A stretch of DNA of 63,313 bases, filler included, from Hausera hauseri (lineage: Eukaryota), in the NCBI GenBank assembly GCA_046269625.1. It is 10 parts of 10 records of this genome, joined end to end, with 100 filler letters (N's around TTAATTAATTAA, not from the genome) between each part and the next. Parts side by side here need not be neighbours in the genome. Positions count along the whole stretch, not along the records: positions 52,082 to 63,313 come from JBJURY010114431.1; 9 more parts are not named here. The stretch is one strand, 5' to 3'. Positions 55,401 through 58,400 of this stretch are shown here, piece by piece; positions within the stretch are counted from its first letter, which is position 1, and every line of letters begins with the position of its first letter. The notes under the pieces are model-generated. The model searched no databases and was not told where the DNA came from. It was given only the letters and a program-made list of their open reading frames with translations. The translations under genes were made by a program, and so were the position numbers.

Positions 55401-58400
55401 AAAGAAAATATTATTGGCACACCATGGCCAAGGAGGTCCAAGATTGGTGCAAGAGTTGCCCAGTCTGTGCCACTAGAAAGAATACTGGCTCCAAAATTAA
55501 AGTTCCCCTTAAACCAATAGAATGTCCACCAGCCCCTATGGAATTTTCAGCAATGGACATCCTGGGACCATTGCCCTTAACAATTAATGGAAATAAATAC
55601 ATGTTAGTGTTTGTCGATCTATTTTCTAGATGGCCAGTTGTAATACCAATACCTGATCAAAAAGCTCAAACTATTGCCCAAGCTTTCGTTGAAGAAATTG
55701 TTTTTAATTATGGTGCACCAACCAAATTATTAACGGATCAAGCACCAAACTTCACAGGAGAAGTTATGGCGGAAATATCGAAGATATTTCAGATATTACA
55801 ACTAAAGACTACTCCCTACCATCCTCAAACGAACGGAACAGTGGAAAGGTTTAACGGAATTTTAACTAATATGTTAGCTACCATGGTTAATGAAAGACAA
55901 GATGATTGGGATGAGTATATCAAGCCATGTTTATTTGCAATTAGAAATACAATCCATCCGGCAACGAAAGAAACCCCATTCTATTTAATGTATCTTAGAG
56001 ATACACACATGCCGATCGATTTGGACTTCAAAACCCCTGTCTCTCACTTAAAAGACATGGAATATAAGGAATTACTGGAGGAAAAATTAGGGTATGTTTG
56101 GAGCTTGGCCTCTCGACACACAAAAATATGTCAAAAAGAATATAAAAGTCGTTATGATGAAAAGGCTAAACCACATGACTTTAAACCTGGAGACAAAGTT
56201 ATGCTGCATACACCCCTAAGTAAGAAAGGAAAGACACCAAAACTAGATAGACCATATAAAGGTCCTTATATGGTCCAAAAAGTAGATGAAACTAACATCT
56301 TCTTAAACAAGAACAAAAGAAATAAAATGAATCCGATAAAAGTCCATGTGAATAGATGCAAGCCAGCACCAACAGAATCAAAAATAAGAAATGAGAACTT
56401 CAGTCCATCGCTAATGGCAACACTCATGATGCTAATCTTAGTGACTAACGTATCAGCTCAGCCCTTGGATGTGAACTATAAGGCCGTACAAGTTGGGAAA
56501 TATCCTTGTATAAAAATTACGGCTAATCGAAACTTAACGATAGATGAATATATACATATATTCATATCAAAATTACCGATAGTGGAGAAAGCGACACCAG
56601 AAAATTGTGATCTATATTATAATCATTCAATACATACTTGCTGTGGACTTTCATTTGGCGAAACATATAGAATTCAATACGCAACGGGAAAAAGCGACCA
56701 GAGCTATAGAACATACTTCTCATACCCTGGTACCACACATTATTTTCATCGACCATATTTTCTTATTTCATTCTATGCTAAGGTCATGAAGAATGGACCC
56801 TGCGTAACCGCAGAACCAGATGTTGTAATTACAGAGTACATAAGGTTTAAATATATAATAAGTGATGGAATCAATACTATACCCTGTGAACCAGACTATC
56901 AAAACCCATATAAATGTTGTCCCATCGCTTTTGATAGACAGTATATGATATACTACTGGACCACGTATAATGGATATACATGGTCAAAAACAGCAGATGG
57001 TCCAGAGATAATAGTCAGATCTCCGATGAAGGTAACCTCTACCTCGACAAGAAAAACAACTACCTCGGTAACACAACCAAGCGTACCAACTACATTAAAA
57101 AAATTAATAACCACTCCAACGATGGAACCCAAGAAGGATATTAAAGAACTGGATATAATTATCCAACCAACAAGTCATTCATTAGTTATTACAGTGCCTG
57201 ACCTGAAGAATACAAACATAAAATTTGAGTGCCATTTCAACCACAGAGTGATTAGTGAAGGAGTTTTAACTCCTGAAGAACCGACATCTGCATGTATGTT
57301 CTTAAAAGCTGATACAAATTACAAAGTCACCATAATAGAATTAGATGAAGAAGGAGAAAAATTACGAACGGTCTCTCGTATCGAAAAGACCCTAAAACAA
57401 ATAATAACCACTATAAAAATCATACCAAGAGTAACTACACAAAAACCCAAAGAAAGTTCGAGTAAATATATTTGGATAATTGGTGTATTATGTACCTTCT
57501 TGGTATTACTAACTATACTCCTACCCTCAATAATTTATTGTTCAAAAATAAGGCAGAGACGACGTAGAATAAAGAAAATGTTAAATCAATTGAAACTTCT
57601 AAGAGAAAATTCCTGGAACGAATCAGTTGAAAACATAACTGCGCCCGACGATGAGACCCAACAAGCTAAAAAGCTTACCAAGAATCAACGGCAAATATGT
57701 CCGTTAATAAACGATCCTAAAAGGTTAACTGAACATGTAACCAACAATAAGCGGCAAAAATCACCGCTCATGAATACAGCCGCATGGTTCTGTACACATG
57801 TGGAAAATGAGGTTACGACATTCCTTACAAACTATTATAAGATCACTCCCAATAAAATAAATAAGGCCGCAAAATCCTACGCGACCTACCAAAACGATAT
57901 TCTCATTATTCTAAACACAAAAATCATGTTTTTATCGTTAATATCCATATTTTTAGTCCAACAAGGCTCTGAAGTCGTCCAACGACCCAAGTCCTTCTAT
58001 TTCAATGTTGCCACAAACCTCAACGCAACCGTACAAAAAGACTACCTATACTATGGTAAGGCTTCGCTAATCCCCAACAATCTCAAAGGTCATACGGTAT
58101 CTCAGAGAAGCGGTTTGATTATCAAACTGCCTAATGCTTCAACGAAGTTATCTGACCTTGTTGACCTTTCAAATCGAACGACTGACGTCTACATATCGGC
58201 AATCAATGAAACACTGCAATTAAAAAGTAGAACCCACTCTAATGGATACATGGATATATTCGAACTCCCAAGATCTCAAACCATTCGTCTAGACCGACGA
58301 TTCTACAAGAATGTCGTTATACTACTTCGAACAAACGGTGGACCCCATTCAATACTCTACATCGAAGTAATTAGAAGAGAAAACATTCCTCATCTCGAAT

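Follow-up and report, generated by a model that had tools for sequence, protein, structure and literature searches.

The contig studied (JBJURY010114431.1, Hausera hauseri) occupies positions 52,082-63,313 of the 63,313-nt stretch of DNA analysed, referred to below as the window. A single open frame of 2,436 aa (52034-59344, +) was found, running from the tail of a fusogen through protease (PR), RT, RNase H (RH) and integrase (IN) into a second membrane protein (Table 1). The fusogen part matched a Monjiviricetes-type fusion glycoprotein, and only the last ~150 aa of this class III-type protein (hereafter G) are present in the query copy because the contig begins there. By its PR-RT-RH-IN order with a GPY module the element fits Ty3/gypsy (Metaviridae), and it shares the gB-type or Burro-like arrangement of a class III-type env in frame before pol, this env being represented by the PF24664 tail in the query and by a full-length protein in 11 relatives. 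No LTR pair was found in the window for the query copy, the contig of which starts inside G. Gag or zinc knuckles are encoded in frame in relatives of the query element, and in overall appearance the elements resemble gag-env-pol Ty3/gypsy elements of the Burro type. The window is made up of repeat-rich contigs strung together with 100-base linkers of the form N44-TTAATTAATTAA-N44 (N/stop), e.g. at 51982-52081. Elsewhere in the window lie gag ORFs on other contigs (13489-15452 and 18194-18940), a DNA_pol_B_2 piece (32233-33009) and a DUF1759 ORF (60732-61322).

Table 1. Features of the query open frame and of the related family-B copies, in window coordinates.
Feature	Position (strand)	Residues	Evidence and remarks
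Class III-type fusion glycoprotein (G), C-terminal ~150 aa and hydrophobic segments	52085..52540 (+)		PF24664 E 1.5e-24, hydropathy
Pol, same frame as G: aspartyl protease, RT, RNase H, integrase to GPY module	52820..56368 (+)		Pfam RVP, RVT_1, RT_RNaseH, Integrase_H2C2, rve
Internal signal-peptide-like segment	56399..56458 (+)	aa 1456-1475	KD peak 2.0; ends V-S-A before Q
Domain 1, four-cysteine FN3-like repeat	56459..56749 (+)		PCI at 56504
Domain 2, repeat of domain 1	56750..57025 (+)		PCV at 56798; fold inferred from repeat
Thr/Ser-rich stalk	57026..57133 (+)	36 aa	44% S+T
Domain 3, two-cysteine, FN3-like, common to whole clade	57134..57403 (+)		LKADTNYKVTI at 57302
TM helix and polybasic stop-transfer stretch	57461..57580 (+)	TM aa 1810-1839	KD 3.0; RQRRRR at 57551
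Second hydrophobic segment and unnamed module	57896..58483 (+)		Also in family B, weakly similar
ISG20/REX4-like exonuclease-fold domain, first D-x-E motif absent	58496..58813 (+)		1wlj E 5.8e-6; Atlas 0.95 to RNase_T clusters
Family-B membrane protein copy, broken	23195..24543 (+)		Ends TGA CAA TTA
Family-B copy, broken, TM absent	28452..29463 (+)		G tail and PR in front, no RT-RH-IN
Family-B copy, broken	48290..49740 (-)		Ends TGA CAA CTA
ISG20/REX4-like domain, family B	25117-25866 (+)
ISG20/REX4-like domain, family B	47638-47423 (-)

The signal-like segment was called by hydropathy and by the -3/-1 rule for signal cleavage, applied to its last residues. In the two repeats that follow, PCI and PCV are each succeeded by C, CC and Y, and the repeats scored 62 against each other, a value reached in 0 of 1000 shuffles. 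An earlier note on this DNA had read the region as encoding a type I membrane protein, FN3-like and fused behind integrase, with an internal signal right after the IN GPY module, two PC[IV]..C..CC..Y repeats, a Thr-rich stalk, an FN3-like signature in a third domain, and a TM; every one of these elements was located, and the layout, the predicted folds and the profile matches support the reading. Its polybasic tail is present as a stop-transfer stretch and is not the protein end, as 597 aa more follow in frame. The ectodomain contains two N-glycosylation sequons, no further hydrophobic window above 1.6 and no RxxR site, in agreement with the earlier statement that a fusion peptide is lacking. 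A known env SU/TM had been one outcome that would have overturned this reading; the ectodomain has no furin site or fusion peptide and matched no env SU/TM family. The query copy also has no PDZ-binding end. In each of the three runs contig depth drops steeply once the TM is passed, which hints at differing ends in many related copies, with the proviso that depth is not copy number.

Folded alone from its single sequence (AF2), the ectodomain gave a confident model for domain 3 only (seven strands, block pLDDT 63-81), with domains 1 and 2 below pLDDT 50. FN3 domains and monobodies were the top Foldseek matches of domain 3 (E 8e-4); in VIA it aligned to fibronectin with 83 positions aligned (Z 8.4, rmsd 2.9), on a par with Ig-like sandwiches of glycosidases (Z 8.7), and it was also matched by a profile of the relatives (E 2.2e-6). 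Domain 1, modelled by AF2 with a 10-row alignment of the window repeats, likewise gave seven strands (pLDDT 63.5), with an FN3 consensus protein as the best Foldseek row (E 0.032) and mostly FN3 rows in VIA (best Z 7.5); VIA Z values of 7.5-8.7 are middling. The beta-sandwich that the earlier note expected is therefore predicted, with seven strands and FN3 topology, for domains 1 and 3, the matches being mostly to FN3, and for domain 2 by its repeat only. Top rows from a viral fold library, including a fish retrovirus env (rmsd 46.6), were set aside, as they rest on the unfolded part. By sequence, the PF00041 (fn3) cut-off was not reached: the query had no fn3 match and one of 15 domain rows matched fn3 (E 0.005). 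The Atlas score of 0.87 for FN3 was taken as a lead only. A 15-row clade profile run against solved structures weakly matched the FN3 domains of LAR (E 0.008), NCAM2, EphA2 and contactin (E 0.008-0.2), and against a large database it gave one weak cellular match, PTPRS (RPTP-S; E 0.03), among the 7997 candidates of 173-2000 aa listed. The search for a host FN3 donor that had been called for thus led to adhesion receptors as a group, from which the FN3-like domains likely derive by these sequence comparisons, and to no specific donor in the profile searches.

The part behind the TM was missed in the earlier note, as was the clade-wide slot described below. The last domain of the query frame resembles ISG20/REX4 at the level of the fold. 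D-x-E, which we take to be the first catalytic motif (ExoI) of the ISG20/REX4 DEDDh exonucleases, is gone in the query and in two family-B copies, as read by eye from translations. A domain of this kind ends both families and was absent from the 179 fetched relatives; as a guess, it could bind RNA as a decoy that counters the RNA defence of the host.

All three family-B copies of the membrane protein are broken by stops or frameshifts. They share the layout of the query, as had been noted before, with the correction that the copy at 28452 has no RT-RH-IN in front. The region around it (27003-29500) keeps the G tail, the protease region and the membrane-protein gene and not RT-RH-IN, and resembles an internally deleted derivative. 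In a six-frame search of the window with a profile built from 24 non-window rows, the query and the three family-B copies were the top four matches (E 1.8e-9 to 0.021). Family B also has a G tail, and its integrase is only 31-37% identical to that of the query; its placement in a quick tree is unsure because its integrase rows are partial and decayed and sit on a long branch. Of the 180 proteins, hardly any besides the query (E 5.8e-6) has repeats that match the four-cysteine repeats of family B, and only family B yielded a match, a weak one, to the module that follows the TM in the query. Since the repeats and the downstream module are common to both families despite the low integrase identity, an exchange of the 3' cassette between distant families is suggested, and this is the simplest reading of the sequences. 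Both family-B copies that reach the tail stop just after the TM tail (24535-24543, +, and 48298-48290, -), and past the TGA the frame goes on into the module that the query fuses with no stop. TGA-CARYYA is presumably a readthrough signal context, and programmed readthrough is possible in these copies; stop+CARYYA was not enriched window-wide (16 observed, 12.8 expected).

Relatives were gathered through two integrase-led searches, which yielded 179 other proteins; a word-based search with the query's own ectodomain retrieved 0 of 1755 candidates at E 0.01. Twenty-one of the 179 stand apart at 47-57% integrase identity to the query and form one group in a quick tree (SH-aLRT 97). A signal-ectodomain-TM module follows the integrase in 17 of these 21 clade relatives; the four that have none (P0004, P0009, P0012 and P0161) are likely truncated: all of them stop early, and two closely resemble relatives that are complete. 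The FN3-like profile matched 13 of the 21 (5 training rows and 8 others) and 0 of 158 outgroup proteins, and a fourteenth clade relative has the FN3-like motif without a profile match. A whole-protein alignment placed domain 3 well and domains 1 and 2 not, and two cysteines are invariant in the clade FN3-like domain. In P0008, P0158 and P0159, which form one branch, the slot holds a different, short Cys-rich ectodomain with no Pfam match. G was found upstream in the same frame in 11 of the 21 and was not seen in the other 10, most of which are cut at the N-terminus; the relatives with full G, some of them also with gag, are single polyproteins of up to 4,057 aa with up to 21 cluster members. 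Class I PDZ ends were found in 9 of the 17 relatives having a TM versus 3 of the 158 others, and Tyr motifs occur in the relatives' tails.

Further cargo is carried in the clade: additional aspartyl-protease domains behind integrase and, at varying places in the polyprotein, ankyrin, ubiquitin-like and C2H2 domains occur in P0002, P0152-P0154, P0156, P0159-P0161, P0163, P0009, P0010 and P0012, and in several relatives extra protease or ankyrin repeats lie between integrase and signal, the intervening cargo reaching ~700 aa. In P0162 a second signal-FN3-like-TM module (aa 47-232) stands just before the protease, where the end of G would fall. The clade member P0014 is filed under a Flavobacteriaceae MAG and is most likely eukaryotic DNA that was misbinned. 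Outside the clade, P0062 (aa 2780-3130) and P0021 (aa 596-644) also have a signal-like segment behind integrase, but their ectodomains are of other kinds, so that the slot may predate its FN3-like filling. Such segments, in the G-bearing outgroup protein P0062 and in P0021, would also suit a topological device, in which the internal signal would hold Pol by its integrase end at the membrane from which G buds and help to package Pol, the ectodomain being a spacer; the greater constancy of signal and TM relative to the ectodomain points the same way. A spacer needs no two invariant cysteines, one to three folded domains or PDZ end, however, and up to ~700 aa of cargo can separate integrase from signal, and we consider this explanation quite improbable.

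The ectodomain diverges much faster than G or integrase in the sequences compared. Identities were 94% in G, 90% in IN and 41% in the ectodomain for P0010/P0163, 65%, 76% and 41% for P0158/P0159, and 93%, 93% and 51-68% for P0153/P0156; in three more pairs the ectodomain was 26-42% identical versus 79-85% for integrase. In one cluster, comparison of 15 members showed 3 variable sites out of 578 in G and 14 out of 264 in the ectodomain, and in three further clusters the within-cluster ectodomain excess rests on few sites (5/306, 4/306 and 4/218). Of 1362 differences to the contig in the three runs, 40 were listed; 38 of these are in frame, 28 of the 38 at third codon positions, and inside the query membrane-protein region 5 of 6 listed differences are at third positions. 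Identities as low as 26-42% between relatives would be expected if a piece of host sequence had been captured and kept as a functionless passenger. This is very hard to reconcile with an open, in-frame reading and intact topology across a deep clade and dozens of cluster members, with the invariant cysteines, and with the bias to third codon positions, and is given hardly any weight.

The second membrane protein is real and extends across the clade, in elements of a kind already known. Its function is narrowed to two readings, both raised in the earlier note, and a conserved slot with a rapidly changing and swapping ectodomain suits either. Fixed in its slot beside a conserved fusogen, and with an ectodomain that changes fast, can be replaced and resembles adhesion receptors, the product looks like a separate attachment or cell-contact protein, and it is tentatively preferred here as a candidate cell-gripping attachment partner of G. 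Under the other reading, which fits nearly as well, it is a captured receptor mimic in the membrane of the producing cell, where it would sequester or obstruct a host receptor for adhesion or signalling, or keep competing elements from entering, and would have no entry role of its own. The FN3 matches point to host receptors, the PDZ ends and Tyr motifs of the relatives' tails suit trafficking or signalling, and in the query and family B the membrane protein travels with an ISG20-like domain, all of which favours mimicry. So does the gathering of cargo of a host-modulating kind (ankyrin, ubiquitin-like, extra proteases), which also counts against an attachment partner; BIR, BCL2, ankyrin and SUMO-like domains are described in Burro (PMC6431247). 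Against this, 17 of 21 relatives keep the slot in final position in the polyprotein, whereas other cargo comes, goes and moves, and the presence of an unrelated ectodomain in the same slot suits a positional role better than the mimicry of one receptor; a mimic is on balance somewhat unlikely.

Several points count against the attachment partner in turn. G proteins of the rhabdovirus and chuvirus types need no partner to bind and fuse. The query lacks a PDZ end and runs on for 597 aa that include a second hydrophobic segment and, after it, an exonuclease-like domain. Fast change in the ectodomain fits a decoy, or constraint that is weak, no less than it fits receptor binding. A complex prediction for a relative's G ectodomain with its FN3 ectodomain scored 0.00, the alignment being unused, and counts neither for nor against the partnership. 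In the available text of an eLife survey, gB-type elements have three ORFs and no second surface protein is described (PMC13524379).

If the protein is the attachment partner of G, the TM of G would return the chain to the cytosol, where Pol would be made; the internal signal would then re-enter the ER, and signal peptidase would free the ectodomain from integrase. G and the second membrane protein would be released one-to-one from one polyprotein, and the latter would reach the cell surface and budding particles alongside G. The ectodomain may bind a surface molecule on a target or neighbour cell, at junctions where the PDZ ends of the relatives would dock the protein, and G would carry out fusion, such that the choice of target could change with the fusion machine unaltered. 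A single envelope gene is the accepted picture for retroviruses and for retrotransposons with an envelope, and a second surface protein that is fixed in its slot and changes or swaps while G stays put is a candidate for what directs the gB-like fusogens of invertebrate retroelements to target cells. A mimic would instead give a retroelement the sort of accessory surface protein more familiar from large DNA viruses. It is conceivable, with considerable doubt, that these elements form an animal LTR retroelement lineage with two-component entry, in which a conserved class III fusogen and an exchangeable, adhesion-receptor-derived attachment protein flank Pol in one polyprotein and the cassette is traded between distant families in one host.

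Among known elements, Burro/GYPSM1 are giant gypsy-like planarian elements whose mononegavirus-like env lies in one frame with gag before it and pol behind it (PMC6431247), and Burro is expressed in planarian tissues (PMC8532177). They resemble the clade relatives in the single long polyprotein, the position of env and the ankyrin and ubiquitin/SUMO-like cargo; by description, not sequence, they differ in that the available text names no signal-FN3-TM protein after integrase, and the clade relatives (2,600-4,060 aa) are shorter than Burro (4,873-5,140 aa; PMC6431247). GAG-ENV-POL errantiviruses of HSV/gB type from nematodes, bryozoans and flatworms are likewise Ty3/gypsy elements with a class III-type env before pol, but no second membrane protein is described for them, and fibronectin, attachment, accessory, exonuclease and Burro do not appear in the main text as available (PMC13524379). 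The bdelloid LTR elements Vesta and Juno have small TM proteins or DEDD exonucleases after pol as ORF3, shared between distant elements; unlike the query protein these are separate ORFs, of DEDDy type, that take the place of env instead of accompanying it, and fibronectin is unmentioned in the text available (PMC5408684). In the literature searched, no description of a post-integrase FN3-like membrane protein was found; figures, Repbase and supplements may bear on this claim.

Animal adhesion receptors (LAR-type RPTPs, NCAM2, contactin and EphA2) are similar to the query protein and its relatives in predicted fold, in the L-x-P-x-T-x-Y motif, in type I topology and in the PDZ ends of the clade relatives, and differ in that the element proteins have a short strand A, added cysteines and no catalytic or Ig parts. 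Two-component entry is used by herpesviruses (gB with gD/gH-gL) and by paramyxoviruses (F with H/HN/G). The query protein has no sequence or fold link to the attachment proteins of these viruses, and the partnership with G is a proposal; what is alike is the placement of a conserved fusogen beside a variable surface protein.
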